Assembly (NCBI GenBank): GCA_973895155.1
Contig: OZ316891.1
Span: 3,950,018-4,014,017, forward strand
DNA: 64,000 bases
Reading direction: 5' to 3'
DNA from: Marsupella aquatica
Taxonomy: Eukaryota; Plantae; Marchantiophyta
Shown: positions 3,274 to 62,427 of the stretch, one piece after another
Layout: each line of letters opens with the position of its first letter
Position numbering within the stretch: position 1 is the first letter of the stretch
Translations under genes and position numbers: made by a program
The notes under the pieces: generated by a model
Seen by the model: only the letters and a program-made list of their open reading frames with translations
Database searches by the model: none
What the model was told of the DNA's origin: nothing

Positions 3274-3559
3274 TTATTTCTCTCCTCGTTACGTCAGAGT
3301 CGTGTAGTCATCACGCTGCCCCGATCGCAAGAAGGGGATGGCGACGGGTGTACGGGACTGTGACATTCAACGCAATACAGGTACAGACCAAAAGTACATT
3401 GTATGTGACTGTATTTATACTATCGTGTAACTACTCGTACCCCAGTTCTGTTTTTTCAATTTAATTTAATTTTTAAAACTAGCCAAGGTGAACACTAGCT
3501 CCGGAAGAGGGCACAAGTGGAGACACTTGAAGTGCAGTTTTGGTGGAGATATCTACTTA

Positions 3560-5057
3560 GTGGACCTCCAAATGCAACTTTTTCTCTTTATGGACCAAAA
3601 GTTACACACGCCCTCCCAGTGGACCCCAACGTTTACATTCTCTCCCAATGGACCCCTAGGCCCACTCCGTACAAGCATGTTCTTCTGAAACACCTTACCA
3701 CACAGTTCAGGTCCACTACGTACCCTGTGGACATGATGGTTGGTCATGTGTAGTAGGCCATCAATAACGTCGCAGTCCACAAGCGTCGTAGCCCTGGCCG
3801 CAATCGAGCGCTGCAACATCGATCATGGCTTCCTAATTTTTGTGAATACAATATGTCTATTGTATTCAAACTACAATAGCCGCAATCTAGAACAATACAA
3901 CATGGTCAATGTATTCACTCTACGCATGCCCGTACGCATGCAATGACACGTACGCATCGATTCTAGGTTGCGTCTACTTTGGATACATAGTGGACATTGT
4001 ATTCAAAGATCGCACTTAAACAAAGGCAGGACTCCCCTGCCTTACATATAGGCAGCAAGGCTTGCTGTAATGAACAGAACCAAAACCTGTTCAACATAGA
4101 ACAATATATTTGTGTCTTGCATACAATATGCATGTTGTATGCACATTTTCCCCCGACTTTACCACAAAGACACCCCCCTGTCGAAGCCTTCCCAAAATTA
4201 ATGGACAAAACTTATCGTATTACAACACAAAAATATGATTTGTCATGTATACACTTTGCACGTTGTATTCGGATTTTCACACTTAGGAAAAAAAAATGTC
4301 CCTCCGACTTTATGAAGATGCCCCCCGCCAAAGCCTGCTCAAATGGACAAAACCTATTGTATTTCAACATAGAAATATGATTTGTCATTTATACACTTTG
4401 CACGCTGTATTTAGATTTCACAAATTAATTAGAAAAAAACTTTGTCCCTCTGACTTTACGAAGACGCCCCTCCAAAGCCTGCCCAAATGGACAAAACCTA
4501 TTGTATTACAACGTGTACATATATGATTTTTCATGTATATACTTTGCACGTTGCATTTGGATTTCACAATTAGAATTATTTTTTGTCCCTCCGACTGTAC
4601 GAAGACACCCCCCACCAAAGCCTGCCCAAATAATCAAAACCTTTTGTATTACAACACAGCGATATGATTTGTCATGTATACACTTTAAAAGTTGTATTCA
4701 GATTTCACACTTAGAAAAAAAATTTGTCCCTCCAACTTTACAAAACGCCCTCCCCCCCCCCCCGGCCAAAGTGACGGTTCATGTTTGTATGCATTGTGGT
4801 CAATGTATACATTGTGGGATACATGGATTCACTCGGAACTGCAATCGTAGTCGACCGAGTTCGGCGATGTGGTCGGACACTGAAAAACAGTAGAACATGC
4901 TGCGTTTTACAGTGACAATCTCGTCCTATAAGAACTGCACAATGTGTTAGAAGAACATCTCACACGAAATGGCACCTCTGGTGGGCCCGGAGGTCCATTG
5001 GGAGGGCGTGTGCAACTTTTGGTCCATTAAGAGAAAAAGTTGCATTTGGAGGTCCAC
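3560..5057. mobile_element. Non-autonomous TIR element (~1.5 kb), 66-bp TIRs, TA-flanked
   Basis: 3560-3625 (GTGGACCTCCAAATGCAAC...) is the reverse complement of 4992-5057 with 3 mismatches. TA lies at 3558-3559 and 5058-5059. No transposase ORF. Confidence 0.8.
4070..4770. repeat. Diverged tandem array, ~143-bp unit, ~5 copies, inside the TIR element
   Basis: AATGGACAAAAC-type anchor at ~4200, 4342, 4486 and 4629. GTCCCTCCGACTTTA and TATGATTTGTCATGTATACACTTT recur at the same period. Confidence 0.85.
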
Positions 5058-5337
5058 TAAACTGTATATCAAGCTCAGTTTTGGTGTTTTTATAGTCCAC
5101 AGGCCCAAAGTTGAAGTGGATTTTTGGTGTATTTGTAGTACAAAAGCCCAAAGCCTGTGCATTGCACAGAACACTACACAAACAAATGCAAACACTACAC
5201 AAACAAATGCAAGTGAAGCAAGAAATACATCTTATGTATAGTTGTCATCATGTTGTCATTAGGGTTGTGCAATCAATGCTGTGTTACACGATTGATCCTT
5301 GCAACCATGGTGCCCTTACGGCCATGTGGTCAAGGGA

Positions 5338-11200: not shown

Positions 11201-11312
11201 ACCTGGAGAAATGGGAAGAAGTTTTGACTAGCACAAACAGAAAGGGTAACTTTGACAATATATCTTGTTAGAGTGGCGACTTGAAAGGCGCTTTGAGTAG
11301 CTAGAATCTGTG

Positions 11313-11647
11313 TGTGGAAATTTCTGAATAAGCTTAATTAACCCACGAAGGGGAGGCGTAATATACACAAAGAGCACAGGTCCGTTGAGTACCTGAGAGA
11401 GGATGACTCAGAGGCCACGTAGGTCATGGAACTGCCAGGCAGGAGCGACAAGTGCCAACGGACGGTGAACGTCCTAAACAGATTTTGTCCTAAGTAACTA
11501 ATGGGCAACCATAAGTAGGTCAATCTACCAATATACTAAATGACTAATCGAACGGTAAATTAATTACATCTAAGTAGCGGCAACTAAAAGAGTTTAGCAT
11601 GATGACGGCCACAAATACTAACACCGTATGTCCCTGAACTTTCAACA
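11313..11647 (-). repeat. 3' LTR of copia 1
   Basis: Direct repeat of 16850-17184, with PPT (AAGAGGGGG on the minus strand) at 11648-11656. Confidence 0.97.
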
Positions 11648-11743
11648 CCCCCTCTTGACCGCATCTTGCAAACAAAGTTGAGAGTTGAGTCATATCAAGC
11701 GGAAGTAGACCATCGTTGTAGTAACAGCAAGTCGAGAGAAGAG

Positions 11744-12241
11744 ATGGCACAGACTGACATCTTAGTGCGCGATTCAGTGCTCTACCTAGTGCTAGCGATG
11801 TTGGGCTTTGTATCAGCCATAGCTCGTTTCCTCCAAGATTCAATACAGTGTGGACAGGACGCACAGGGAAGCCGAGAGAGAGATGGTCCCGTGCAGCCAA
11901 AGGAGAGGGCAAATGCGCTAGGATCATTAGCTGGGACTGGACCTCAAATTCGATCGGAGTCGAGTCCACCGGTATCAGTGCAGACGAGAGAGGAAGTGAA
12001 TGATGAATCAAGGGTGCCAGCCATGGGGTACCCGGTGGCATTGGAGTTGTCTGTTTTAGAGGGTCCTCCCCATCGATACTACGCAGTGGCACGGGGACGC
12101 CGTCCAGGGATATATACCACTTGGGAAGAGACTGAGCCATTGGTCAGTGGCTTTAGAGGGAATAAGTTCAAGTCCTTCAAGACTAGACAAGAGGCTGAGC
12201 TGTATGCGTACCGTAATGGACTTGGACCTAGTTTAGGATAA
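11744..12241 (+). CDS. Antisense extra ORF in copia 1 (165 aa): N-terminal hydrophobic helix + C-terminal RNase H1 hybrid-binding / Cauli_VI (viroplasmin) domain
   Basis: MAQTDILVRDSVLYLVLAMLGFVSAIARFL... ends in RYYAVARGRRPGIYTTWEETEPLVSGFRGNKFKSFKTRQEAELY, which fits the YYAVxxGrxxGIYxxWxexxxxVxGFxgxxfKsFxtxxEA consensus. Lies between the pol stop and the PPT. Confidence 0.88.
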   Translation: MAQTDILVRDSVLYLVLAMLGFVSAIARFLQDSIQCGQDAQGSRERDGPVQPKERANALGSLAGTGPQIRSESSPPVSVQTREEVNDESRVPAMGYPVALELSVLEGPPHRYYAVARGRRPGIYTTWEETEPLVSGFRGNKFKSFKTRQEAELYAYRNGLGPSLG

Positions 12242-12319
12242 GAGGCAGTAGAGGCGTTATCGCATAGCTTAGGAATGATGTACTTGTAAAGGACCGACTA
12301 AGGCTTTGGTCTGCTCGAT

Positions 12320-15300
12320 TTAAGCTAAAGATTTCATACCTAATTGATCTCTATTCTTGATGAATTTCACTTTTGAAAGTGCCTTGGTAAAGATGTCTGC
12401 GACTTGTTCTTCTGATTTCACATGTTGAACTGAGATTTCACCTTCGAGTATTCTCTCTCTAATGAAGTGATGATGGATCTCGAGGTGTTTGGTCCTTGCA
12501 TGAAACACTGGATTTTTTGCAAGTTTGATAGCGCTCATGTTAGTACAGTGCATGTGTAAGTCCTGAAGAGTCCGTTCCGATGAATTCACCAGGTCCCCCG
12601 AGATGTCAAGACTCTTGTGCTTGATGTTGCTTGGTGCAATCTTGCACTGCTGTAGTTCTTCGACTAGCCTCTTCAGGTACACGCCTTCTTGTGCCCCATC
12701 AGATAGAGCTCTGTATTCGGCTTTGGTGGTTGACCGTGAGACAGTGGGCTGGCGCTTGATGCTCCAGGCAATTGGTCCCATGGCTATCTTGTGCACATAT
12801 CCTCCCGTGGACCTGCGTGTGTCGGGACGTGAGTTTCCCCAATCTGCATCTGTGTATCCTTCAATCTTAAGGGATCCTCCCTTCGAATAGAACACGCCAT
12901 ATCCAGTTGTTCCTTTGACATATCTGACGATGTGCATGGCAGCGTCAAAGTGTGCTTGCTGAGGTATGCTCATGAATCTGCTTACTAAACCAACTGAGAA
13001 CGAGATGTCTGGCCTAGTATTAATGAGATATATAAGCTTGCCTACTAGCTTGCAATACGTGGTAATGTTAATGTCAGGAGTGTTGGACTCAGCTGATAGT
13101 TCCAATTCCTCTGGAAGGGGCATTGTAGCCGGCTGACAATTTTCCATTCCATACTCAAGAACTAATTGATTTGCGTAAAACTGTTGGTGCAAGAGTATGC
13201 CTTCAGTTGAGTTGTGGAAATCTACTCCCAAGTAGCGTTTGGCTGATCCAAGATCCTTCATTTCATACTTGGCTTGAAGTTGTTGCTTAAGTTCTGCAAT
13301 CAACTGTGTGTCGTCCCTTGTGATTAGCAGATCATCTACAAACAAGATAATGATTGCTGATTTGTTGTCTCGTACCTTAAAGTATAGGTTAGGGTCGAGT
13401 GAACTCCTTATACACCCGGATGAGCGAAGAAAGGCATCCAATGCTTCGTACCAGGTCCTGGGGCTTTGTTTGAGTCCGTAGATGGATCTGCGTAGCAGAC
13501 AGACAAGTTTTTCCTGACCAGGAATAACAAAGCCGGGAGGTTGCTTCATATAGAGGAGTTCCTTCATAGTGCTGTTGAGGAAGGCTGTTACTACATCCAT
13601 GTGAAGTAGAGGCCAGCCAAAGGCAACAGCAAGAGCTACAATGAGTCGAACGGTTGTCCATCTAACTACTGGAGCAAAGGTCTCATCGTAGTCGAGTCCT
13701 TCTCTCTGTTCATTGCCCCTTGCTACAACACGAGCTTTGAATTTAGTGTTGCCGGTCTGATCTATCTTCTCCCTTAATACCCATCTTGCAGATAGTGCTT
13801 TCTCCTCCGGGGGAAGAGAGACCAGATCCCAGGTACCGTTTTTCTCATGGGCCAGAAGCTCTTGTTGCATAGCAAGAACCCAACGAGAGTCATGAAGAGC
13901 TGCGCTAAGTTGAACGTCGTTGGTAGAGTCAGCAATGAGAGCAGTGATCTCGGCAGAGAGAGAGACATGGAAATCCTTATATTTTGAAGGAAATGATGTA
14001 AGACGGCCAGAAGGAGGCCGAGTGCGCTCGATAGGTCGGTGTCGGGCCCTACGAATCGGGGCAGGTGGTGAGGATGTTGGTTGGGCAGAGTTGGGTAAGT
14101 TTGCTACAGCTGGGACATCATCAATTGAAGTCAGAGAACCAGGTGCGGGATCAGGTGCAGCGGCTGCCGGAGGGGGAGTGTGGGAGTCATTGGTACCGAC
14201 TGAGATAATGTCAAACAAACTTTCTCTGTCGACGGGAGCCTCAGCTGAGTAATTTCCCGGAGTTGACTCATCGACCACTACATCCCGGGAAATGAGTATT
14301 TTCTTGGTGACAGGATCGATCAAAGCAACGGTAGGCTTTGCTTTGTGTATCATAGCCAATAAGAATGCACTTGCGAGACTTAGCACCTAGTTTGTTTCGT
14401 AATTCTTTAGGAATGTGAACATGGGCAGTGCTGCCAATGACTCGGAAGTGACTGACGTCCGGTTTGGTGTTGGTCAGACATTCGAATGGCGTGGATAGAT
14501 TGAGAGCGCGAGTGCTGCATTGATTGTTGATGTGGTTTGCGGTCTGCAAAAGTTCTTCCCAGAGAAATGCCGGAGCATTTGAGCCAAAGGCTAGAGACCT
14601 GACAATGTCCAGTAGAGTTCGATTTTTTCTTTCGGCGACTCCATTCTGATGAGGCGTTTGAGCTACTGTGAGTTGTCTAGCAATCCCGTGTGTCAAGCAA
14701 AAAATGCGGAATAGCTCGGATGTGTATTCTCCCCCTCTGTCACTCCATAAGGAAGCAATCTTGAGGCCGAAGGTTACCTCAACATTCTGTTTGAAGAATT
14801 TAAATGTGTCGAGAGCTTGGCTCTTATACTTCAAAGAATAAACCCAAGTGTACCACGAGTAATCATCAGTGAATGTAATAATGTACCTTGCACCAGAGAG
14901 TGAAGGGACCGGAAGTGGTCCATATAGGTCGGTCAAGGCCAACGGTCTTGTAGATCGAGAGACGGCTGCCTTGGGAATCTTGTGACGAGTCTGCTTGCCC
15001 TTCATGCAATCCTCGCATACGTGATGTTCGAGTGATAGCGTAGGTACTCCTACGATGAGATTGTGTCTAGTCATGTGACTAATACGTTGAGAACTAGAGT
15101 GACCCAGTCGTTGGTGCCAGAGTTGACTTGCAGAGATTGCCGGTTCAGTCAGAGGTTTTGTTGTTGGAGTTAGAGCGGGTGCCCGAGGCACAGTGAGGTG
15201 GCATTGAGCTGACACCTTGGGATGGAGCGTCATTCTCCTCTGCAGAGAGGTAGCAGGACTGACTACACACAAAGGAAGTTGGATTTTATATAATCTACTC

Positions 15301-16797
15301 AATGGATCACGTGTTCCCTTGAGACGTAGCGTATAGGGTTGCTGCTTATCGACTACATAGCAGTTCGAGGAGTTGAACACAACGGAATGCCCTTGGTCAG
15401 TAAGTTTACCAATAGAAAGCAGATTTTGGGTTATACTAGGAACGTACAGAACATCGGAAATTGCTTTATTGCTTGAGATGGGAACACAACCGGAACCAGA
15501 TACAGGCATCTTGGAACCGCTAGCACTGGACACACTGGAATTGGACGAAGTGCTGCAGAGAGTGGTGAAATTGTCCTTGTCGCGACTGATGTGCGCGGAT
15601 GCTCCACTATCAAGGATCCAGGTACGATTTTGGGATGATTCCCCTCGAACTCACTGAGCATTGCTTCAATGGAGAGAGCAGATTGGTGCTCGCTTGGAGC
15701 GCTGTTTCGCTCAGAGTCACTGTCACCAATGTCTCCCATGGTGGCCAGGTAGGACTTGGGTCCAAGCCCCTTGATGTCCTTGATGCTTTGAGTTAACTCC
15801 CGCATCTGAATCGGGGACATGGACTTGATCTCCGTGTGAGCTTGCTTCTCATAGCAGTCGGTCTCCCAGTGCCCCTTCTTCCCGCAATAGTTGCAGTTTG
15901 TGTCTCCCCGCACATCTCGCCTATCATGGAATGCCCTTGGGGGAGGGGGCCTGGGCCCCCACCGGTTGTTCCTCCCACGACCTCGTCCACGACCCACTCT
16001 GTTGTAGTCTCGTCGTGGCTTGTAGTGCTGAGGTGGTAGACGCTCTCGTCTCAGATCGCCACCAGCAGCAAGTAGAGAGTGTTCTCCACTGTCTCCACGT
16101 GGCTTTCTGCGGAACTCCTCCGCCTGTAGATATTCCTCAAGATCTGCAAAGGTAGCTGTTGTGTTTTTCGAATACAAGACTCCATAGGCAGATATGAAGG
16201 TCGACCAACTCTCAGGCAAATTACGTAGAACTATCTGAATGAGCTCCTTCTCGGGAATCTCTTCTCCTACGGATGCAAGCTCCATGACATGTTGATCGAT
16301 CTTCTTGAGATAATCCTCGATTGAAGCTCCCTCATGCATGCGAAGCTCAATGAGTGTTGACTTAAGATCTAGCTTGCGCTGAATCGCAGACAATTCGTAC
16401 TTCTTCTTGGTGTGACCCAGAGTTTAGCAGGGTCATTGCGCAGACGACTGATAATAGGAAAGATGGAAGCAGTGGAGGTTTTGGTAAATATTATAATTAC
16501 CCTCTCCTTGTCCTTCTGCTCCGTAGCTGAGGTTGTGGTGAGTTTGGTAGCGGTTGCGCTGCTGGTGGCTCCGCCAATGTTACCTCCAAACGTAGTTGAG
16601 TCTGAGCTTGTGGAGGCTTCTCCTCCGACTGTCGTAGGCTCACTACTGGCACGTTGTGCCTGGGGATCGACTATGTACCATAGCCCCTTCTCCCTAAGGA
16701 TCTGTTCGATGTGAAAGGCCCAAATGATGTAATTCAGGGCACCCACTAACTTGTCGCTATCAGAGAATGAGATCTTCATGGCATCGGAAGAAGACAT
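12320..16797 (-). pseudogene. Copia 1 gag-pol with three frameshifts (~16410, ~15640, ~14320)
   Basis: Zinc knuckle CNYCGKKGHWETDC; protease WILDSGA (frame upstream of 15533); integrase HQRLGH...CEDC, FTDDYS, SDRGGEY, QNGVAERKNR; RT KARVVARG, MDVVTAFLN, LFVDDLL; RNase H YTDADWG, HARTKH, ADIFTKAL. Confidence 0.95.
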
Positions 16798-16837
16798 GGT
16801 GAAATTCTAAGATAGGAAGAGTCTCAGAAGTCTGGTA

Positions 16838-16849
16838 GCTCTGATACCA
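16838..16849 (-). promoter_or_regulatory. Primer-binding site (tRNA-iMet) of copia 1
   Basis: TGGTATCAGAGC on the minus strand, directly abutting the 5' LTR. Confidence 0.95.
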
Positions 16850-17184
16850 TGTAGAAATTTCTGAATAAGCTTAATTAACCCACGAAGGGGAGGCGTAATA
16901 TACGCAGAGAGCACAGGTCCGTTGAGCACCTGAGAGAGGATGACTCAGAGGCCACGTAGGTCATGGAACTGCCAGGCAGGAGCGACAAGTGCCAACGGAC
17001 GGTGAATGTCCTAAACAGATTTTGTCCTAAGTAACTAATGGGCAACCATAAGTAGGTCAATCTACCAATATACTAAATGACTAATCGAACAGTAAATTAA
17101 TTACATCTAAGTAGCGGCAACTAAAAGAGTTTAGCATGATGACGGCCACAAATACTAACACCGTATGTCCCTGAACTTTCAACA
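16850..17184 (-). repeat. 5' LTR of copia 1
   Basis: Direct repeat of 11313-11647. Confidence 0.97.
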
Positions 17185-17279
17185 CTGTGGAGTAAACAAT
17201 AGCTCCTTCTGTTCGTCCATTGAACATTGCGATATGAGGTGTACGCATACGTTTGGTGCAATATTGATGGAGCTGGGAT

Positions 17280-18009: not shown

Positions 18010-18560
18010 CGAAGCGCAGCTGTACATAGCCATGGCTCAAACAGAACTGCAGGCGTTTCATCATTTGGCGAGAACTCATTCATTACTATAGGGTTAGACT
18101 CATGCAAAGACATTCACATGAATGTCTTCCGTTTGTAAACATCATTCTGAGTTTTTGAAATATTTATGAAAACTGTTTACTCAGTCTAGGGTTTTGGCAC
18201 CATTATATATTTAACCCTAAACCCTATATATAACTTCTGTTTACCAAGCTTCAGGGTTTACTTAGGGTTTTCTTTGTTTTAGGATCCTAAACCCTAACTC
18301 TAAATTGTAGAACCTTAACCTGAGCATCGAGACTAGTACTAGGGCTCTTTGGAGCCCTTACTAAGGCATCTAACATTGTAGATGGACAATTTAGTGAAAG
18401 ATAACAAAAATCAGTATGTGATGGCATTTTGCATTGAGCTTGTTAGCAAGGGTCAGGCAAGGGGTGTAACTTTGAAAATGTGCAAATGTATTCCTCATGG
18501 TTGGCCATACCCATGAAGATGTGGATGCATTATTTTCTCAAGTATCTAAACAAGTCCTAG
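18010..18560 (+). pseudogene. Transposase relic of the DUF7869 / Sola1-like DDD family
   Basis: 18370-18560 reads, with a stop and frameshifts, LTL*MDNLVKDNKNQYVMAFCIELVSKG...FENVQM.FLMVGHTHEDVDALFSQVSK, matching the LQxDNxxxeNKN...FLxVGHTHEDxDxxFS signature. Confidence 0.7.
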
Positions 18561-18627
18561 GGTTGATAAGTTTGGGAGTGTGAAAGCATTCATACCACAA
18601 TTCATTCAGGTGGTTGCATCTTATAAG

Positions 18628-19030
18628 TGTTGGGTATTTACTCTTACGTCTAGGTTAGGTATGACGTGGTTGGTACAACAACGTGGGTTGGTACAACTAC
18701 GTGGTTAGGTACAACTACATGATTAGGTACAACTATGTGGTTAGGTACAACTACGTGGTTAGGTACAACTAAGTTGCACACTATATCATAAGAGGCATGT
18801 GTGCTTGGAGAGGTAGAACCAAGGCTCATTGTTATGGAGCCACTTGAGAGATAGGGAGAGCTTACACTGTGGAGACTCGGTATAGCCGACGGGCTTAGAG
18901 TTCAGTAAAGCTCTCTTGTGTGTTCCCGTGGACGTAGCCTCAAGGAGGTGAACCACGTATCTCTTGTGTCGACTATTGTGCGTTGGATGGTTCATGGGCT
19001 TGCCGTTGCGATCATCGTCTATGCTCAACA
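18628..19030 (+). repeat. 5' LTR of copia 2, with an 18-bp tandem repeat (GTGGTTAGGTACAACTAC, ~6-7 copies, 18650-18772)
   Basis: TG...CA ends followed by the PBS; homologous to 47011-47355 in reverse orientation. Confidence 0.9.
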
Positions 19031-20184
19031 ATTGGTATCAGAGCATGCTTGGGAGGTGACGTGTGTTCGTGACGGGATTTTATGACGGTTTTTCCAGCGT
19101 TGAGTGTTGGTGGATTTTCTAGAGTTCCATCGCATGGAACTTGGAGTTTATGGGCTCAACGGATAGATCAGGGCAAGAGCTTTCTAACGGTATGAAGAAA
19201 TTGTTGAACGGAGCTCGTGGTGCAGAGAGATCTAAGTTTTCATCGTTCTGGATTTTGTGAAGAAAGTTGGCAATCGACTCGGAGGGAGAAGCGTCAAGTG
19301 TTTTGACTCAACGGAGAGATTGAGGCAAGACGATTGTTTTGAGTCCGAGATTAGCTCTTTGATGCAAAGAGGAAGGCTAAGCAAAAATCAATTACCTTGT
19401 TGGACTTGGTGACGGCACCAAGTGCAATTGATCAACATTCGTTGTTGACAAGGTACCATTTTTTTCTCTTTGAAAAACTGATTCGAAATTGGCTATGGCA
19501 ATTGAGAGAAATCTGTCATCTTTACCAATTTTTTTCTCTCTCGTTCTTTCCTCGTTTTGGGTGTTTCTTATATCGATCTTCACCGCCTCGGAGTCTAGTT
19601 TCCAAATTTGAAATCAGATCTTGATTTCGTCAAAACCCGAGTGAGATATCTTGCGTTTGGTGTCGAGGGGTACATTCTGCCATGTGTATTTTCTGCGCGC
19701 GCGACCAGATTTCGACGACGAAGGGTGGTAGGGGGTTTTGGGGGTTCGAGGACACGTGTCAGCCCCTCGATTATTCTTCCAAAATTCTCACAGGGCCTGT
19801 ACAAGGGTCATAGAATATTCCAAAAAACCAGAGAGCTATTTTTTGACCGTCCGATAAAGATTTCATCCACCGAACGGTAACTTTTTTGGTTATTTTTCGG
19901 CGAGGTCGTAGCCATTGAAGTTGGCAACGCGGCGCACCAATCACATCGCAATTCCGACAACGGGTTGTACTTGGTATTTTGGTTATTCCCTGAGGTGGTC
20001 AAAACGGGGGAGTTTCCCAAGGTTTTACCCACCTCGACCGAAATTTGAATAACTTTTCCGTCAAATTTCTATTTTGATTTCGGTTTTCAGTATTGGACTC
20101 CTAACTTTGTGGGCTACGCTGCGGTGTTGAGTTTTGAGTTTTTTGAGATGTTGTGAAAAACAACATTTTTTGTGATTTTCTCAT

Positions 20185-21225
20185 ATGAGTGATTCGGAGG
20201 TGTTTTTCGAAGATGTGGAACTTGAAGCACGAGGATCACCGCGGAGGTTTCAGGGACAGAGAGAGGAGCAAGAGGAAGAGCACGTGACACCGATACCATC
20301 ACCGGTGCGGCGTGTGGTGGAGGAAGCAATACTACTACCGGAGCTCACGGTAGTGCCAAAGAAGAAGATGGGGACTTTCAAGCTTGGGGGACCCAAGTAT
20401 GAAGTGACAAAGTATGATGGGCGCTCTGACTACTTGCTATGGGAGAAGCAGGTGAAGGGAGTGCTCTATGCGTCAGGGATGGGCCAACTGCTGAGCCCTC
20501 GTGAAGACGATGTTGATGAGAAACAATGGGACCGCATGCAGGAGCAGGGAGTGTGGTGTGTTACACTCTATCTCATGCCTCCCATCATCAAGCAGTTGGG
20601 TGCACATAAGGATTGCATGTCCTTGTTTGCGGAATTGCAGAGCAAGTATCACCGCAAGGAGTTGTCGAACCGGCTCTACACTTCCTACAAACTGATGAGT
20701 TTCAAGATGAAGGAATCCGGTACGAAGTTGCAAGACCATGTGGATGCTTTCAACGACATGGTCGTTGACTTGGAAAACCTTGGGGAGACTTTGAATGATG
20801 AGACGAAGGCTCTGCAGGTTCTTAGTTCATTGCCTCCATCTTACCAGTCCCTATCACGAGTGTTGTTGCATCGTGATAGGGATACCATTTCATACAATGA
20901 CGTGATAAGTTCTCTGCTTAGTGATGATCTTCAGCAGAAGATGCACATCACGTCACAGCCTTCATCATCTGGTGTTGCCCTCAATGTTAACCGTGGGAGG
21001 AGTATGCAGCGACCAACTGGAGACCGTAGAACCCAGTTTAGATCTAAATCCAGATCTAAGTCCAAGGGTAAATCCCCTCAGAGGAGGCAGGTGACATGTT
21101 GGAAGTGCAACCAAGTTGGACACTTCAAGCGAGACTGTAAGGGAAAGGCAGCGGAAACTTCATCGGCAAATGTGGCTAGGGCTGATGAAGAAGCTGATTT
21201 ACTCAATGATGAGTATGTTTTATGA
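20185..21225 (+). CDS. Copia 2 gag (346 aa)
   Basis: KYDGRSDYLLW, UBN2-type LSSLPPSY, zinc knuckle CWKCNQVGHFKRDC. Confidence 0.9.
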   Translation: MSDSEVFFEDVELEARGSPRRFQGQREEQEEEHVTPIPSPVRRVVEEAILLPELTVVPKKKMGTFKLGGPKYEVTKYDGRSDYLLWEKQVKGVLYASGMGQLLSPREDDVDEKQWDRMQEQGVWCVTLYLMPPIIKQLGAHKDCMSLFAELQSKYHRKELSNRLYTSYKLMSFKMKESGTKLQDHVDAFNDMVVDLENLGETLNDETKALQVLSSLPPSYQSLSRVLLHRDRDTISYNDVISSLLSDDLQQKMHITSQPSSSGVALNVNRGRSMQRPTGDRRTQFRSKSRSKSKGKSPQRRQVTCWKCNQVGHFKRDCKGKAAETSSANVARADEEADLLNDEYVL

Positions 21226-23410
21226 AGCCGGGAGTATGCCCTGTGCACGTCATCTAGGAGAGCAGATGATGTGTGGATTCTTGATTGTGCTTGCTCTTTT
21301 CATATTTGTTACATTCGTGAGTTTTTCAGTTCTTACTCTGTTTCAAACGGTTCAGTTCTGATGGGAAATGATCACTCCTGTCAAATTGAGGGAATTGGGT
21401 CTGTGAAGATTCAAATATTTGATGGCGCTGTGCGCACAGTGTCCGGAGTCAGGTATGTACCTGGCATGCGTAAGAATCTGATTTTACTCGGTGTGTTGGA
21501 TTCAAATGGTCATCAATGGAGCGTTATTGATGGTGAACTTCAAGTCAGGTCGGGAGAGACAGTGATTTTGAAGGGGAGTAGACAAAAGAATTTGTATATG
21601 TTACAGGGCAATACTGTATGTGGAGAGGCCAATGTAACCAAGTCTCACGAGGAGATGACTCAACTGTGGCATTCACGGCTAGGCCACATGAGTGAGAAGG
21701 GTTTGGCTATCTTACGGAAGAATGGACTCATTTCTGATTTGCAATCTTGTAAATTAGAGTTTTGTGAGCATTGCATTCTTGGAAAGCAACATCGTCGTGC
21801 TTTTGGTGTTGGAACTCATCATTCCAAAGCGGTTCTTGAGTACATACATAGTGAAGTGTGGGGTCCATCCCCGACTCCCTCACACTCTGGAAAGTTGTAC
21901 TATGTATCATTTATTGATGATTACTCAAGATTTGTGTGGATTTATTTCATGACGCATAAGTCTGATGTCTTGTCCATTTTTAAGAAGTGGAAGGCCCAGG
22001 TGGAGAATCAGACTGGAAACACGATCAAGTGTTTGGATACAAGGGTGAAGAGTCTGAGGTCAGACAACGGCGGGGAGTACACTTCAATGGAATTTGAAGA
22101 GTACTATTCATAACAGGGGATAACTCGCCATCTCACCACAGTTTATACTCCGCAGCAGAATGGTGTCGCTGAGAGGCTCAATCGGACACTGTGGAGCGGT
22201 CACGGAGTATGTTGAGCCAATCAGGTTTACCACAAGAATTTTGGGCAGAAGCTGTCAATACCGCAGCTTATTTGGTAAATCTTTCTCCTTCTAGTGCTAT
22301 CAATTTCAAAACGCCGTTTGAGATGCGCTATAAGCGGCAAGCAGACTATCATGGCTTGGTAATTTTTGGAAGTGATGCATATGCTCTCACACCGAAGCAG
22401 AATAGGACCAAGTTGGATCCTACCTCCAAGAAATGTGTTTTTCTTGGGTACCAGAGTGGTGTGAAAGCCTATAGGCTATGGGATCCTATTGCCTGTAAGC
22501 TCGTTGTCAGTAGGGATGTTTCCTTCAATGAATCCAGATTATTGAAGGAGGGGGAGAATACTCAGGTCTCCCGTACTGACAAAGGAAAATCTCCTATCCC
22601 GGATCTCATTGAGGGGGAGATTGGTTATGAGGTGCATGACCGGAGAGAAGGAGTTGCTCCAATTATGGAGCTGGTTCCTGTGCCAGAGGAACCAGAGGAG
22701 TTTGTTGATGCTGGTGAGCAGCAAGTGGATGCTGTTGAGCTTCAAATTGTACCAGCACATGCAGATCAACCGGAGTCATGGGCTAGAAGAACATCTGGTC
22801 GCACTGTACGCGCTCCACCAAGGTATGGACAGTGGGTTGATTCATCTCAACTGCAAGAGGATGATTTTACAGCTGATGATGAGGGTGATGCGTTAATTTT
22901 GGAAGAAGGGGAACCTTCTTCATTTCATGAGGCAAGTGCTTCAAAGGAGAAGCAGAAGTGGACTGCAGCAATGAAAACAGAGATGCAGTCACTAAAGGAC
23001 AACAAAACTTGGGAGCTTGTTAAGCTGCCTAAGGGTCAGCAAGTGGTGGACAGCAAGTGGATTTACAAGCTGAAGGATAATTCCATAGGAGGTGGATCGA
23101 AGGTCTACAAGGCTAGGTTGGTAGCAAAGGGATTCACACAAGAGAAAGGTGTGGATTACAATGAGGTCTTCTCACCAGTTGCTAAGTACTCTACAATACG
23201 ACTATTGTGTGTACTTGTTGTAATGTTTGGTCTGCTGCTAGATCAGATGGATGTTGTCACAACTTTCCTCTATGGCACATTGGAAGAGGTGATCTTCATG
23301 AGACAACCGCTAGGTTTTGTGAAGAGAGGACAGGAGGATTTGGTTTGCAGATTGCTGAAATCCTTGTATGGGTTGAAGCAGTCACCAAGACAGTGGAACA
23401 AGCGGTTTGC
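21226..23410 (+). pseudogene. Copia 2 pol (PR, INT, partial RT), with a stop at 22111-22113 and a frameshift near 22190
   Basis: WILDCACSFH, WHSRLGH...CEHC, FIDDYSR, SDNGGEY, QNGVAERLNR, KARLVAKGF, QMDVVTTFLYG, SLYGLKQSPRQW. Confidence 0.93.
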
Positions 23411-24619
23411 TGTTCTCCATGAGGGATAATGTGCCCGTATGTGTATCAAATGAAAATAAAGCACATATCAAGCAACTTTGGCTGTTGGCATTGGGGAGGT
23501 CCATTTGGAAAACTGATCCCATCACAAATGCACTCATTTTTCTTGGAAGGCCAACCATTTGCAAAACCTATATCTAGGAAGGTAGGAAAGAAGGCACCTC
23601 TACAGCATATCTCAAGAGATCTCCTTTGGTGACACATTGGGAGAAACTTGTGGAAGCACTATCCAAGGAACTTAATATAGAAGGGAAGGACGAGGGGAAG
23701 GGGGAAAGACAATTTCCATTGACAACTGAGTTTTGGCCAAAGACTAACCATGCCACAAGTTACAAGGTGATTTTGGGGACATCTCAACCTTCAAGTTAAC
23801 CTACTCAAAATCCAGAGATGATGGATCTTCAGAATTTGTACATGATTGGAAGAGATGGAAAATCAAATTACATCCTTTGGTGGTGCATGACAAGAGGGAG
23901 ACTTGCACCCTGGATTCCTCTGTACAAGATATTCAGGGTTTAGGGTTTTTAGGGTTTAGGAAAGAAGGCACCTGGTAGACAGAAATAAAGGGGTCGGATG
24001 TCAAGGAGCCTTTCATGGGGGAGAATTAAGTGTGTTCATATTTAAGAGGGGGGGGGGGGGTGATTTTTTGGAGACAGAAATCAAGGGGTGTGATGTAGAG
24101 GAGCCAAACAGGAATCAAGTGGTAGCTAATCAAAAAACGAATCTCAGCCACTGTCGTGTACGTCTAACAATCACATAGCTATAGTAATCAACTAAATCGC
24201 TCATCCACTTCTGAGAGTCCTTGTAGGGCAGTCAGGAAACCAGAATTGATAGTACTTTAGATGGTAAGTACTATAAGTCGTCTTAATAATGATTCGGGAT
24301 ATAATGATAATGATTGCGATAGTTTATTAGCTTGAAGCCAGTGGAGTGAAGGAGTGAAGATTCGAGAGTGAAGATAAAAGAGAGTGAAATGAACTAGATT
24401 AAGTTGTCCCACCGATGTATGTGAGTACTCATGCCCCAGGTCCATGCAGCTAGCTGATCGAGCTGGAGAGGAGCAGGAGAGGGGCAAGGTAGTCAGGCAG
24501 CTCTGCTTCTGTAGCGATCCACCAGAAACTCCAGAGCTTGAGTGGAAGCTTGCGGAGTTAAGGCACAATACGGGAGCTAGCGGACTAGTCATAGAGGTCT
24601 TGTTCTGTAGTCCTTGATC

Positions 24620-27406
24620 ATGAAGAGAAACGAAGAGCTTGAGCGAATGTTTGCAGGGATGTTTGGCAGTAACCGCAACATGCATATGGCCACATTCAGC
24701 ACAGCCAGGCAGGCAGAAGTAAATGCACGAGTGTGTAAGTTGGGGAAATTGATCACAGCAGCACAAGAGCTGGATCTCGCCTTCCTAGTTGACGTAACTT
24801 ACAGCATGCAGGTCTGTCTCGTACATTCTACTTTGATCGCATCGAAATGACGAAGAGTGTTAGCCTCCCTTATCAGCTTAAAGGATTCTTTGTCGTAGTT
24901 TCCTATATGCTGTGATATGTCGGTATCTTCGGATGCAATTTGGGTTCATATTTTACATCGCTTTCGAATAATGATTCTTCGTTAATTGCCAGCCATACAT
25001 CGACTCGGTAAAGGAGAAAGTTCAGAGCATTTCTGCTGAGGTCAAGGAGGCATGGCCCCAGCTGAAACTTCGAGTTGCCTTTGTCCCATACAGAGATTAT
25101 GAGGACAGTGCCATAGATAATGCCGACATGTGCGATTTTACGGATGATTTCAAGGGTTCATACAGCGTTTTTGTCGAAGCTCTTTCGAGAGTACGCGCAG
25201 GTTAGCTAGTATCATATTCTTCCCGGTATCGCCGTGGTGCATGTGACAAACGGCTTATGTTTCTCAATGGAGACTTCTGTGTGCATTGTACTGACGACAC
25301 AAACCTAGACGGCTTTGACGATCCTATCAGTTCAGTTTCTAGCAATCGTTACTATTTTCTTCTCCTTTTGAAAACTATCACATGAACCAGACTGCCTTCT
25401 GACTTCAAATCATCATGATTGCAATGTTCTAGTGGGGGGTGCTGATGAAGCTGAGGACGTCTTTTCTGGCCTCCATCGCGTTGCTTCTCTTAGCTGGAAG
25501 TCGAGGACTCGTGTGCTTGTGCACATTGGTGATGCACCATGCCATGGTGCGGAATTCCATGATAATGCTTGTGACCGATGCCCAGAAGGGGACTTGCTCG
25601 GCCGCAACATCATCACGCTTCTCAAGACTCTTCGAGACGATTGTCAGATCATTAGCTATCGTTTTTGTCATGTAAACAACAGCACTAAGAAGATGCTCAG
25701 TGTTTTCAAGAAGAAATGTGATAGTGGAAACTGGATCCAGGAGGAGGAGCTCAGCAACATAAATAAACTAGTCGATATCGTGGTCAATGTGTCGACCACC
25801 AGTATCTCACAGTCCATGCAAGTCAGTAACACCAACATTGTCGTCCGCAAGTTCGTGAACAAGCCTGTGGAACCTGAGATGCCTCTGTGGCGCACAATTC
25901 CACACAAACGAGCGACTCAGATAAGATACAAGTATGATTGTGTTCTTAAACTCCCTGTGGTGTATATATGGGTCCACCGAAACGACATATTCAGTTCTAG
26001 AGAAAGTTTCTTATCAATTATCTCTTTAGCCCAATTACGCAACGTCGGAATGGTACTGAGTTAGCTAGAATTTTTAGAAACAATTGTCCACTGGTCATTT
26101 TCTTGTTAGTACAGAATTCTGGCTCTGTAATAAACTAGAGAATCCCGTAGAGAATTATCTTTGAGTTTGTGAAAGTCATGGACTCGCAGGTTACCAGACA
26201 GTTTGGAAGATCTATTTCACACGCTGGCCACAAATGGCAAATAAGAGCTGACGGAAATGCCGGACTCTACGCTTCAGATTGCACATTATCCTTTCTCTGA
26301 CGAGGGAAGCCTAAGGTGGCCGTATCATGCAATGGTGAATCAGCCACCTTTTGCACCTAGGTATGATTCTGTGATTACGGAACCTATGATAGTCCCGATT
26401 AATCGTAGATGGGCGCAAAATCTGTTCCTTTTAGACGATTACTAATAATGTTTTTAATTTATATATCTTTACTCTAGGCACATGGTGGTGAAGAGATTCA
26501 AGGAAACTCTTGGGCAAGATGTGAACCGTATCCACGCAAAGGAGGCTTATTTTGAGCAGATGGAGGTACAGACTGTGGCAGCTAAAATGGCAGAGGAATT
26601 CAACAAGAAGATTCAGAGGTTAATCTCTATGCTAAATCAATCCCCTCGCACACTAATCTCAATTCTTTAGTGGTATGCACTCATGTCGCATAAAAGACGC
26701 TTAGTTATAGTTTTAGTTAAGTGAGGTTTTCCAGTACCTTGTCATCTGCAGCTGTACCATGATTCTTGGTCAGAGGTCACACCTGCTGTACGTGCTTCAG
26801 ATTTTGCATAATTGCTCTTAATTGAAGTCATCTTAAAAGTCCTTTGAATATTATGTTTGAGTGGAATGGAATGGTCGGATTAGTAAGGTATATTAAGTCC
26901 AATACCTTCACTTGCCAGCGGCAGTATCTGATTCATTTGCTCCTTTATGCAGCCTCTTGGTTAAAGATTACAAGACTATCCAATTCACGCTGGTGTCTGT
27001 ATTGAGAGTCGGTACAACATTCTACAACATGGAAAAATTTCTAGACGGTAAGTGGATCAGGTACTCCAACAATTTAAACTACGTGAATACGAAGGATCAT
27101 GCGGCAACCCTTCATGCCTTCTCACATTGGACATATTATCGCTCCCAAGGCTTGCTCGTTGTCAACGACTTACAGGGTGTCGAAATAGTGAGCATGACTG
27201 GGTCCAACGAATTCTGGTTGTGTGACCCTGCTGTTCATTGCAAGGATGCATTGCGTTACGAAAGGACAGGAACGAATTGGAGTGAACCGGGGATGAAGCT
27301 GTTTTTAGCAGCCCATCAGTGCAACTACATTTGCCAAATTCTCGGTCTACCTCTGACCAAGAATCATGGGTTCTCTCTGGATCCCCGGTACAGACGAATT
27401 TCCTGA
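24620..27406 (+). CDS. vWA-domain + alpha-kinase (VwkA-like) gene; exons 24620-24811, 24993-25200, 25433-25931, 26190-26360, 26478-26618, 26953-27406; in-frame TAA at 26242-26244, so possibly a recent pseudogene
   Basis: vWA: DLAFLVDVTYSM (MIDAS DxTxS), RVAFVPYRD, GGADEAEDVFSGL, VLVHIGDAPCHG. Alpha kinase: PFSDEGSLR, VVKRF, MEKFLDG.WIRYSNN, HAFSHWTY, VNDLQGV, LCDPAVHC, HQCNYICQILGL. All introns are GT-AG with consistent phases. An upstream exon is possible (AG at 24609-24610). Confidence 0.9.
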
Positions 27407-29652
27407 ATGACATTCAAAATTCTCTCTCGATGGTGGTACCTCATATATAGGTTGATGGCTTCAAAGACACCAGCTATATATATGTCTGCGAAGGCTCGAT
27501 CACTGACATCTTGAATAGATCTAGTCGGCGATGTTCGGAAAGCGTAATTCAGGAAAAGTTGAATGTATTGGTGACACAACTACAGTGTCCGGCGTGGATA
27601 ATTCGGGGGATAATTGGGTCCGCTTAGTTTTCTATGTTTGATGAGACTGAACAATTTTTGATCTATCTATGGCTGTTGTATTCTTCACATAGGGAGGACC
27701 TTGTTTTTTCAGCCATTGCCACTGTGAACCCTACGTAGGGATAAAGCATTTAAATTGGGACCATCTAGCAATGATAGTGTACTCATAAAAGCGTTACTCC
27801 CACTCTTACTGTAAATTGGGACCATCTAGCAACTAAGAGTGGGATCTAGTAACGCTTTTATGAGATTTTGAAGTAACAGTCGAAATATGAATAGTACAGG
27901 TGAAAATAAAGCAGTTTTTTGGGCTTTAATGAATGTTCTTACTTTGATTATATGAAAACGAACTCCGTAAGAGAAGTGAGCCCAAGAAGCCCTCAATCCT
28001 TGGAGACAGTACCTGAGATGGGTCTTATGCCTCTCAACAACGGACCCGCACAAAGTACAAAGACGAAGACTTAGCCATTGTATGGTCGTTTGTATTGTAC
28101 CTAGTAATGTGTAGCAAGAAACGAAGGTAGGGAAGAAGTATACGTTTGCCATCTCGTGCCTCTAGCTGCAGCATGTAGTGTAGTGGCGGTGAGCACCTCT
28201 CCCGAAGTTTATGGTTTACATATCGAAATCGAATTTCAACTGATTCAACTGCAAGGTCAGACCAAATCGAATTAATTGAAGGTAATAGGGTCGACATTTC
28301 AACAATGGTACGGTCGATCATTTGGCCACAATGCAGTAAATTCGTGAACAAGGACCAGTCGACACATGCCACAACCTCTGTGGCAAATTCCAAACCTTGA
28401 CTGTAGGACTTTATAGATTTTGCCATTGTGAGCAACCGCATTTATCATGCCCGGCCTTTTGGATCTTAGATGTAAATCAAACAAAGCGGTGAAACTTCAG
28501 CTTAGCAATAAACTGACGTTCTTTGTATCACTCAAATCTAGTCACCTTTGTGGTAACTTGTTAAAATATCAAATTTGATGGATGGATGGGTGGACACCAC
28601 CCAAATGGATGATTTGGTGGGGTCCTCCGAATACGCTAGGCAAGATGGTTCTGTATAATTCCCAGTGGTTGAGCTATTCATGAAAGTTTTGAAAGTTTGC
28701 ATCATTTGTATTAGTGCGTGATTTGACATCAAATTTACTTGACACGACCGATGGGTTGGACTCTCAGTTCCCTGTGGGCACGGCAGGCCTGTGCACTGGA
28801 AGTCAGAAACGCAATACTTTGTCCGATCACGGGAACAGCAGTTTCAAAGCAAGTTTCCAAGTTGTAAGTGAGAAGTACAGCTCCACTCGAGTTGGATTCT
28901 CTGTGAAAAATCGTAAATGCCCCATAAAAGCCTCAGAGTAAACGCTGTTAACAGTCCAATGAAGATGAGCAGACATGAGTACATTGAAAATAATCTCTCT
29001 GCTTTACTGAATGATGCAGGATCGAACATAGCCGGGCCTCTAATTTGCAGCCGATATCATCCCAGCGGAATAGTCGGGGATGAGTCCTAATCGATCGAAC
29101 CCGTAAATCTTCATTAGCTTTAAATCTAACGTCCCCTATATACAAGCAGAATAGCAGCCAATGGTGGACACAAGAAACAAGCATCGCACCATTGGATGCT
29201 GGATCCTAATACCCCTTCTGATCCGAAGTTGCGGAAGAGAGGGAGAGAAAGAAACACGAAGGATATGTTACGATTGTTGGTGCAGATGTTCTTTCTGCTC
29301 ATGATGTAGATATTGATTGTAAGAAGCAAGCTTGCAGGGTGCCTCCATGAACTGTTCGAAAGTTGCCTTTGTAGATTGAGCAGGTGTGTGAATCCACCAG
29401 CGAAAGAGGAGACAGTGGTAGTCGATAACAGCAATCTTCGGTCCGTCCACACGAGTGGGCATTTTCCCAAGAGTGGAAAACTACATTGAGAACCGATGGT
29501 GATGAATTGTGCAACAAGCTCCTCTGTAAACTTGGTGGTGAAGGGAGGCTATTCGCAAGTCAAGGGAAGGGAGTCAAATACCCCTTCTAGAGCAATACAA
29601 CGTGTGAAGGGACCACGACAACCACTGGTGCCAGTATCACAATATTTTACAG

Positions 29653-29746
29653 ATCCAACCACCCGAAAGGAAATACTACCCCGTGATCAGAGGATTTGTG
29701 CCTGGCATCTAATCATGGGAAGATTGTGAGCCTCATGTTCGAGGCT
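29653..29746 (+). pseudogene. 5' half of an RNase H1 hybrid-binding / Cauli_VI domain exon, split by the CACTA insertion
   Basis: IQPPERKYYPVIRGFVPGI*SWEDCEPHVRG joins in frame, through the GCT TSD, to the 3' half at 45963-46210. Confidence 0.8.
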
Positions 29747-59972: not shown

Positions 59973-62427
59973 CTATCGATTTGCCATGGCAGATCCCTCT
60001 TTGCGTATGTGCTTCTCCTCGTCATTACGCATTACACTTAACTGGTGCTCCAGCTGGATATTTTTCAGCTTCACTTGCATTAGCTCATCATCGAGATCTG
60101 AAATTCTATTCTGTAGATCTGCTACGTACTGGACTCTATATATCTGAAAACCGAAGTCGGAATCAGTGCTCTCTTCACTTGAGGTTCTTGAGAAAGCCCT
60201 GGACACGCCAGGGCTTGATCTTTGCCCATGAGAACCATCCGCTGCGCTGATGCTCGATGTGAGATCATTGATAACTCTATCATGATGGACAGCCTTAGGC
60301 TGCACAACATTCCTTCTTTGGGATAGTTCCATCGAGGTGGAAATTGACGGAGGGGATGGTGATGACTGCGGTACGAGTTCTTGCAGCTCTACATCTGCTT
60401 CTGATATTATTGAGAACCTTTCCCTCCTTTGTAGAAGCGGCCGCTTGACCTTATCCTCCCTGACGTCCATGTAGCTTGAAGATCTGCGCCCCAAGGGGAC
60501 ATCATTGATGGGGTCTGACAGACCTCGTTCAGCTAGAGCTCCTGAAGACGCAGCCAATTTTCTATCCCGGTAAAATTTGTTGCTTCGAGATACCTCGACG
60601 TCTGAAACCACACGGTGAAGTCGACCATAATCGTCCTTGTCTTTGTCTCGAATTCGCAACCCCTTAAGATCTGGACTCGCCAGATTCTTATCATGCAGTA
60701 GACGTCCCCCATGGTCTTCACGGCCATCGTCCGTCTGCTTCTCCAGATCCAGCTTCTCTCCCTTCTCCAATTTATGACTCTCTCTGTCGATTCTTTGGGC
60801 CTGGCCTTTGCCATCTTCAAGAGGCTGGTTTGAAATCCCAGCACCCGACTCGGATGTGATCAATTGTCCTGTGGGCTGTGAAACCGACGAAGATGCTACA
60901 GAGCGTTGTCTATTGTCCCTATGTGTTGCTTCGTCGCGCAATTCCTGAGTGGGTTCTGGCGAACCTTCAAGGTGGTCGTTCTTTGGACGTACAGCAGCGT
61001 TGCCAGCCGCCACAACATTGCAGAAGCTATCGACAGCACCGCACTTTGGTAGCTGATGCTTATCCATCACGCTCGATGGAGAGCAGTCATCCTCGGTTAG
61101 CAGAGCTGTTTCAGCTATCAGGTCTTCAACTTCGAAATTCCAGCAGCTTAGGCCGCGTTTGTACTCAGTCTGACTCTTTTCCTCTTTCTCTTCGGAAGGC
61201 ATCTTCATCTTAGCAAGCCGTGCGGCGTCTTTGAATTTCAGATTCTTCACCCGCTGGCCAAGAGGAGGGAGCCCTTCCAAGACACGCTTGGCAATGTAGT
61301 CACTCGATCTCGCATTCTTGAAGAACGAGTGTTTCAGCAGCTTCTCAGCAGTTGGCCTCTTCGTAGGATCCTTCACCAAGCACATTGCAATCATCTCCTT
61401 GAATGATTTCGAGAAGCGCTTGTCTCTTTGATCATCAAGTGTGGGTGGAGCTTCGTGTAGCGTCATCAGCAAAACCTGCATTGGTGGATATTTTGAGAAA
61501 GGAGCATGACCATGTGCAAGCTCCAACGCCGTTATTCCAAACGACCAGATATCAGCCTTGAAATTGTACCCGTGAATCTGCTCCATCACCTCCGGGGCCA
61601 TCCAGCATGGCGTTCCCACAAAAGTGTTCCGTGACCGCTGCCTATCACCGCTATCAAACATACATGCTGACACACCAAAGTCCCCCAGCTTAACTCCTCC
61701 CTGGCCATCCATCAGGATATTCCTGGTAACAAAATGACGCTTCATGAGTTTACTTTGTGCCTGCTTAGAAAGATGCTCGAGAACTAACATCAGATCGAGT
61801 TGAGATACAATGCCTATGGAATAACTTTTCTCTGGTGATATTATTATCTTTCATAGTTTTTATTACCACAAAAGGTATGGACCATGGCAAGAGAAAGTGG
61901 AACGTAGCGTCTATGAATGTAGACGCTTAGGAAGAATCAGAGAACTACCCAGCCTTGACATCTCGGTGTATGTGACCCTGCTTGTGGAGGTAGTCCAGAG
62001 CTTTGAGCGTCTCCTTCAACACAGTGGCGATGACGGGTTCGTCAAACCCATTTGGGTAACCTATTTTCATGATATTTAGGCAAGATCCGCCAGCGAAGTA
62101 GGGCATGACAATCCTCAGACTCTGATCCACCACAAACGAACAATATGCTCTCACGACGTTGGGATGGAGGATGAGCTGCATAGTGTTAGCCTCTCGCCGT
62201 ATATCATCCAGATTGCTGTTGCACCTCTCGAGATCCAGGCTCTTGATCGCCACCACCTCTTTGAACGGGATGCATAAGGCTCGGTACACTGTTGCGCCCG
62301 CCCCATGGCCGATCTCCTCCAGCAATTCGTAGTCCGCTGCACCCAACGGATAAATCTTCTTAGCCTCCTTCGCCTCCCCTTTCCTGAGTTCCGACAGTGA
62401 AGCGGACTTCTTCATTAGTTTATCCAT
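59973..62427 (-). CDS. STE20-family MAP4K (OSR1/SPAK/Fray/BLUS1-like) Ser/Thr kinase, 742 aa; exons 62427-61949 and 61722-59973
   Basis: EIGHGAGATVY, VAIK, HRDVKAG/NIL, DFGVSA, TFVGTPCWMAPEV, DIWSFGITALELAHGHAPFSKYPP, EYKRGLSCWNF, C-terminal coiled coil. The GT-AG intron 61948-61723 gives a 2229-nt open CDS. Confidence 0.95.

Follow-up and report, generated by a model that had tools for sequence, protein, structure and literature searches.

Does the open reading frame (ORF) that runs against the coding strand of a liverwort copia retrotransposon encode a real protein, and if so, what could this protein do for the element? The frame, 165 aa long, occupies 11744-12241 (+) of a 64,000-nucleotide stretch of the Marsupella aquatica genome, which we refer to in its entirety as the window, and it runs uninterrupted from the ATG at 11744 to the stop at 12241. 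A preliminary description of the locus had placed it on the opposite strand between the pol stop and the polypurine tract (PPT), 97 bp from the 3′ LTR, and our coordinates agree. The same description proposed that the frame is an accessory gene of the element.

The antisense ORF lies in a complete copia element

The host of the ORF is a complete Ty1/copia LTR retrotransposon on the minus strand, spanning 11313-17184. It is bounded by a 3′ LTR (11313-11647, −) and a 5′ LTR (16850-17184, −) of 335 bp each, which have TG...CA termini and are 98% alike, the 6 differences over 335 bp all being transitions. A 5-bp target site duplication, CTGTG, was identified in the sequence on both flanks, the right copy (17185-17189) matching the left copy (11308-11312) perfectly. 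Together with a primer-binding site of the Met-tRNA type (16838-16849, −) and a PPT (11648-11656, −), these features are those expected of a copia element, as is the domain order of gag, protease, integrase, RT (RVT_2) and RNase H that Pfam and comparison with an intact relative revealed at 12320-16797 (−). Against the intact relative, gag-pol falls into four frame segments, i.e., it carries three frameshifts. A contig from run X2, possibly the window's own sample, covers 11637-16510 with zero differences to the window, so the frameshifts are not errors peculiar to the window assembly. In a pol tree built without lineage references (Ale, Ivana, Bryco, Gymco and others), the window pol falls into one clade with elements of the liverwort Calypogeia fissa (support 98).

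The window holds several other features. A second, unrelated copia at 20185-23429 (+), with gag, integrase and RT, shows 28-36% to the first element's intact relative and is broken; no LTR pair for it was found within 18500-26000, nor does it carry a hybrid-binding ORF. By eye, fragments at 25432-27406 (+) resemble a vWA-type domain followed by an alpha-kinase, and a STE20-like kinase sequence at 59973-62541 (−), perhaps a retrocopy, spans two long frames and shows no evident introns. At 3557-5060, inverted repeats of 69 nt (96%) surround direct repeats of about 145 bp, like a small non-autonomous DNA transposon, and a tandem array with an 18-nt unit in about seven copies is located at 18654-18789.

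The antisense ORF has no intron and occupies the gap between pol and the PPT, a region of 0.66 kb. Its stop and the pol stop (12320) lie tail to tail with 78 nt between them. Its ATG is the first one past the LTR end, with a G at +4 and a purine at −3. This arrangement, with the antisense ORF placed between pol and the 3′ LTR, is known as aORF-3R. We ruled out a TTG start further upstream at 11666, because one sister contig has an insertion at 11724 that disrupts the extension and because the Met at 11744 is aligned in 7 of the 7 full-length homolog rows. A sense-strand frame of 198 aa at 11544-12140 was also rejected: it has no Pfam match and runs into the LTR, and we take it for a shadow of the real gene.

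When the region was shuffled 2000 times, a stop-free frame of at least 165 codons turned up in 23 cases. The preliminary description had set the intact ORF against the three frameshifts of gag-pol, and both are indeed observed. However, at the break rate of gag-pol the ORF would have escaped disruption with P = 0.72, so its intactness in the window copy alone is no evidence and the contrast is uninformative.

Helix and domain are constrained between sister copies

Sister copies are informative where the single copy is not. For this comparison we used contigs from two runs of a second organism (organism B), which come from one study, are unphased and were treated as one pooled comparison. Over 11660-12330, 39 substitutions are listed; 31 lie in the ORF, and the 2 that precede the ATG and the 6 that follow the stop were omitted. 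The boundaries of the parts compared, a helix, a linker, a domain and a tail, were fixed from Pfam and the alignment. The whole ORF has 14 silent and 17 replacing changes, and the resulting pN/pS of 0.58 is not significant (P = 0.095). For helix and domain together, 10 silent changes face only 4 replacing ones, yielding a pN/pS of 0.19 with P = 0.003 (0.002 by simulation). Taken singly, the helix has 4 silent and 2 replacing changes, and the domain 6 and 2 (pN/pS 0.15, P = 0.014). The linker has accumulated 4 silent and 9 replacing changes (pN/pS 1.1), and the last 11 codons, which form the tail, 0 silent and 4 replacing ones. The sole listed indel within the ORF is a 6-nt removal. That zero stops occur among the 31 changes is an outcome expected with P = 0.34. 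A dN/dS comparison had been suggested in the preliminary description; it bears out constraint on helix and domain but not on the ORF as a whole.

One relative may do without the ORF. On a 918-nt contig found in runs X2 and X3, with 79% to the window element in RNase H, alignment on 12329-12775 shows the end of pol joined to the PPT side, with 658 nt skipped, the side beyond the joint comprising only 28 letters. This relative therefore seems to have no ORF, and the ORF may be dispensable.

In organism B (runs X3 and X4; window 11660-12330), pieces identical to the window copy occur beside a sister about 6-8% different, with higher contig depth. A shared insertion in very close relatives would explain such a mixture, as would a hybrid.

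The predicted protein joins a hydrophobic helix to an RNase H1-type domain

The ORF product is predicted to consist of three parts. Hydropathy, AlphaFold2 and the alignment delineate an N-terminal helix at residues 7-41 (11762-11866, +), with a hydrophobic core at residues 12-30. A variable linker, predicted to be disordered, follows at about residues 42-109 (11867-12070, +). The third part, at residues 111-154 (12074-12205, +), is recognized by both Pfam and fold as the RNase H1 hybrid-binding domain PF01693. The preliminary description had read an RNase H1 N-terminal/Cauli_VI domain without a catalytic RNase H from this ORF, and the profile check agrees: PF01693 matches over model positions 1-44 of 44 with E = 1.7e-19 and 70 bits (cut-off 21), whereas neither a catalytic RNase H family nor an env-like family has a Pfam match in the product, whose chain stops 11 residues past PF01693. 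An RNase H1 enzyme would carry the catalytic domain in the same chain, and the ORF product does not.

The hydrophobic stretch of ~18 aa noted in the same description was recovered as well, with the top 19-residue Kyte-Doolittle mean, 2.21, at residues 12-30. AlphaFold2 models of six sequences consistently show one long helix (7-41; pLDDT about 91 at residues 11-30), a disordered linker and the domain. The helix is hydrophobic on all sides, like an anchor, and bears a stripe of small residues (A18, G21, S24/A25). The charges that flank it show no bias consistent across 7 homologs, so that they establish neither that the helix inserts into a membrane nor that the domain is cytosolic. We considered a cleaved signal peptide and judged it unlikely, as the AxA site after residue 27 is missing in 4 of the 7 homologs.

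The predicted domain superposes on the human hybrid-binding domain (3bsu) with an rmsd of 0.5-1.0 Å over 46-48 residues. In human RNase H1, W43, F58 and K59 belong to the hybrid-binding surface, W43A or loss of FKK abolishes hybrid binding, and changes of the lysines lower binding about tenfold, as described in PMC6846478. Equivalents of W43, F58 and K59 are all present in the window domain and are retained in most family members. The position of K60 is occupied by Ser; a rough count over 388 domain stretches also puts Ser first at this position, with 124 against 99 for Lys. Two human basic residues, R32 and R52, are missing from the domain, and R33/R35 are also gone in three homologs. The ORF domain thus shares sequence (family profile E = 2.5e-11), fold and three key residues with the hybrid-binding domains of RNase H1 (human 3bsu, yeast 1qhk), but differs from RNase H1 in its C-terminal position, in the chain's having no catalytic part, in the change of K60 to Ser and in the added N-terminal hydrophobic helix. 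On these grounds, the domain probably binds duplexes without being able to cut them.

The same build recurs in a family of distant homologs

Six further clusters at 90% (P0001/P0013, P0003, P0051, P0063, P0100 and P0125) share the build of a start Met, a helix, a free linker and a terminal domain with the window protein, at 33-48% identity, and the small-residue stripe of the helix is kept across all six. One of them, P0125, is CAM6101554.1 from C. fissa, where it is annotated as an ordinary gene. A profile of the helix found P0125, which had been left out of profile building, at E = 1.3e-8, and yielded zero matches outside the family among 336 proteins. P0002 and P0140 have the family's domain without the helix. 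Constraint on helix and domain across 33-48% identity argues for a real gene. Together with the sister comparison, it supports the proposal of the preliminary description that the ORF is an accessory gene under selection and not a chance frame.

In a tree of the domain with 210 rows, from which P0012 and P0013 were excluded as duplicates of P0001, the 9 family rows lie on one side of a branch and the 201 others on the other, at a modest SH-aLRT of 83-85. Among the members of the nearest outside group (support 93) are four short proteins in which the domain is followed by a C-terminal hydrophobic tail. Fourteen of the 210 domain-bearing proteins reach a 19-residue hydropathy mean of at least 1.8, among them 6 rows of family members and 4 short tail-anchored proteins. 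These neighbours and the family show that an anchor plus the domain without a nuclease occurs in two arrangements. The membrane tether suggested in the preliminary description accordingly gains from the conserved helix and from sister proteins in which the domain is coupled to a hydrophobic tail, but is not helped by the inconsistent flanking charges.

P0193, P0195, P0201, P0202 and P0211 (77-107 aa), which belong to this nearest outside group, combine the same domain and the same FRGN motif with a C-terminal hydrophobic tail, a mirror image of the window ORF. In the ESM Atlas, the nearest clusters are small basidiomycete PF01693 proteins (0.93), and the helix region of P0125 had no usable match. 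Metagenome contigs gave no confirmed locus with either the family profile or the pol end. Viral contigs gave no locus with the single protein as query; the profile found 70 domain-only loci there, 0 of the 70 with the helix or a copia RT.

The window itself contains a decayed second copy of the domain family at 29656-29745 (+), which matches P0063 at 61% over 31 aa (E = 3e-9), contains a stop and breaks off near 29747. About 100 codons upstream, 29290-29365 holds a weak helix-like remnant (E above 0.05), and a short sequence resembling the element's PPT lies at about 29211. No pol remnant was found near the decayed copy in the window. It is possibly the wreck of a second ORF-bearing element.

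Do the distant homologs reside in copia elements?

The best match to the RT-RNase H end of the window element (77%) is P0213, whose contig, at 2904 nt, is exactly as long as the longest one of P0002. By a rough reckoning, not a computation, such a coincidence for the best match has a chance of about 1 in 1000. The nearest named pols among the matches listed are three from C. fissa, at 58-60%, so that this species has both a member of the ORF family and the nearest named pols, on different contigs. The contigs of P0001, P0013 and P0051 (5467, 2061 and 5180 nt) have no counterpart of equal length among the best 120 of 737 pol matches. Residence of the distant relatives in copia elements is thus only indirectly supported.

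Comparison with known systems

The closest precedent is the aORF-3R of plant Ty3/gypsy elements (maize Grande gene23, rice RIRE2, Silene Retand TRP28 and PvRetro13) and of the fungal element Boty. Those ORFs share with ours the position between pol and the 3′ LTR, the antisense orientation, the conservation among copies and a presumed promoter of their own, according to PMC7264820 and PMC11963269. Unlike them, the window ORF has a copia host, is short, in a region of 0.66 kb as against 2.9-6.6 kb in Retand, and encodes PF01693 and a hydrophobic helix where the gypsy ORFs have TRP28 or SMC-like domains.

The preliminary description had turned to the sense env-like ORFs of Sireviruses as the known comparison, and the antisense 3′ ORFs of Grande, RIRE2 and Retand are closer. 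Sireviruses have multiple PPT octamers upstream of the 3′ LTR; of this motif there are 0 copies between the pol stop and the LTR. The env-like ORFs of Sireviruses and Athila are likewise extra 3′ ORFs with a hydrophobic stretch, and in one sunflower Athila an antisense ORF is predicted to encode a single TM helix (PMC11728184). However, env-like ORFs are in sense orientation, as outlined in PMC7264820, and the ORF here is antisense and has a nucleic-acid-binding domain.

Caulimovirus P6/TAV (viroplasmin) offers a second likeness: there, too, a reverse-transcribing element has this domain in an additional gene, and no nuclease accompanies it. P6/TAV proteins are 400-530 aa long and encoded in sense orientation, and their likeness to the ORF product is limited to the 45-residue domain. 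With an rmsd of 16-36 Å for fold matches outside the domain, and with its copia context, the ORF product does not belong to P6/TAV. P6 also starts with a helix, which drives self-association. Its domain binds TOR, eL18 and eL13 and is dispensable for RNAi suppression, according to a review (PMC5902531).

Domain gains of gypsy elements (an AlkB m6A demethylase in orchids, PMD, G-patch and AIR1) likewise put an RNA-related domain into an extra ORF that is kept across subfamilies (PMC9289625). The same screen, of 121 angiosperm genomes and 4,811 copia consensuses, is described there as finding domain gains in gypsy only and none in copia, bryophytes lying outside its scope.

Proposed function and alternatives

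We tentatively propose that the ORF product is an adaptor without cutting activity, which would collect the duplex intermediates of the element at an internal membrane and shield them there, a reading that we rank first while rating its chances somewhat below even. Transcription would start in the 3′ LTR, the putative source of antisense transcription, or in the adjacent 96 bp. The hydrophobic helix would anchor or cluster the protein, probably on an internal membrane, and at the membrane the RNase H1-type domain would grip RNA:DNA or RNA:RNA duplexes of the element. One human domain alone is diffuse in cells and three in tandem form foci, as reported in PMC10639055, which implies that a lone domain needs clustering, and the conserved helix is the obvious means. 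Whether by membrane insertion or by self-association of the helix, clustering would compensate for the low affinity expected of one domain alone. In the most conjectural step, the protein would do its job where particles assemble and reverse-transcribe, as a small counterpart of a viroplasm protein. Points against the adaptor include the shortness of the hydrophobic core of the helix, only about 16-17 residues, and the formation of hybrids within particles, to whose interior a membrane protein may have no access. Doubtful, though conceivable, is the wider proposal that a liverwort copia lineage carries an antisense 'mini-viroplasmin', a captured RNase H1 domain plus a membrane anchor, across species, and that it builds a protected replication site, converging on caulimovirus P6.

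Could the protein instead suppress silencing, by coating the element's dsRNA, including duplexes with its own antisense transcript, against Dicer-like enzymes? An antisense gene predicts sense-antisense duplexes (PMC7264820), the CaMV P6 version of the domain binds both hybrids and dsRNA in vitro (PMC5902531), and extra ORFs of Tekay gypsy elements have been proposed as dsRNA-binding silencing modulators from structural likeness (PMC11728184). Yet that P6 version, by the same review, binds TOR and ribosomal proteins and can be dispensed with in RNAi suppression, which weakens the P6 analogy drawn in the preliminary description. A single small domain binds weakly (PMC10639055), and sequestration needs no conserved hydrophobic helix. 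We consider suppression unlikely.

Decidedly unlikely, in our judgement, is that the ORF is recent cargo of one copia family, its distant homologs being host genes or parts of another mobile element, and the selection reflecting a short-term function or the donor. Such an origin would fit the annotation of P0125 as an ordinary C. fissa gene, off the contigs of the C. fissa pols found, as well as the relative that seems to lack the ORF and the decayed copy at 29656-29745 without pol in the window; the same domain is moreover helitron cargo in the fungus Pleurotus, according to PMC4289320. It fits poorly with selection on helix and domain between sister elements, with the 2904-nt contigs of both P0002 and the best pol match P0213, and with an intronless gene that fills the gap between pol and the PPT. 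In addition, C. fissa, the only named species found with a member of the ORF family, also has the nearest named pols among the matches listed.

Two further readings we regard as very unlikely. In the first, the product is a trans-acting subunit of the element's RT-RNase H, with the helix binding Gag or Pol and the domain supplying the grip on hybrids that cellular RNase H1 unites with its nuclease in a single chain. The order of helix, linker and domain does recall the domain-linker-catalytic build of RNase H1 (10.1101/572842), and Pfam finds no hybrid-binding domain in the element's pol. But the helix is hydrophobic all round, as an anchor would be, antisense expression separates the product from Gag-Pol, and close relatives seem to manage without the ORF. 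The second, equally improbable, holds that the element limits its own copy number through the antisense RNA together with a hybrid binder that does not cut and that rivals RNase H for hybrids. Regulatory antisense transcripts have been discussed for several retrotransposons (PMC7264820), and RNase H would face competition from a lone binding domain, but a brake leaves the conserved helix unexplained.

Least probable of all is that the domain is a protein-binding surface through which the product would adjust translation or stress signalling to the element's benefit, as P6 binds TOR and 60S proteins (PMC5902531): family members differ at several basic positions of the human surface and the best viral fold matches include caulimovirus P6 proteins, but the equivalents of W43, F58 and K59 are kept in most members, the P6 matches are confined to the domain and do not exceed the identities seen with phage or cellular RNase H1, and PMC13308828 reports that a search of seven bryophyte genomes found no endogenous caulimovirids. 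With similarity limited to the domain and with that negative result, a caulimoviral donor of the domain is not favoured either.

Implications

The layout itself is already known from the antisense ORFs that gypsy elements carry between pol and the 3′ LTR. In the open-licence literature, as covered by titles and the beginnings of abstracts, we found no report of an LTR element with PF01693, and none of this domain in a plant copia. Additional antisense ORFs in plant retrotransposons were recognized decades ago but still lack an assigned function, mainly because the encoded proteins look like nothing that could be tested (PMC7264820). The ORF domain, by comparison, comprises 45 residues with a solved structure and known inactivating mutations, which makes binding, localisation and effects on silencing directly testable. 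The finding also runs against the picture of no domain gain in plant copia drawn from the 121 angiosperm genomes (PMC9289625), and it marks bryophyte elements as an unsurveyed source of such gains. If the adaptor model is true, copia elements and caulimoviruses would have independently placed the same non-cutting domain in an accessory gene.
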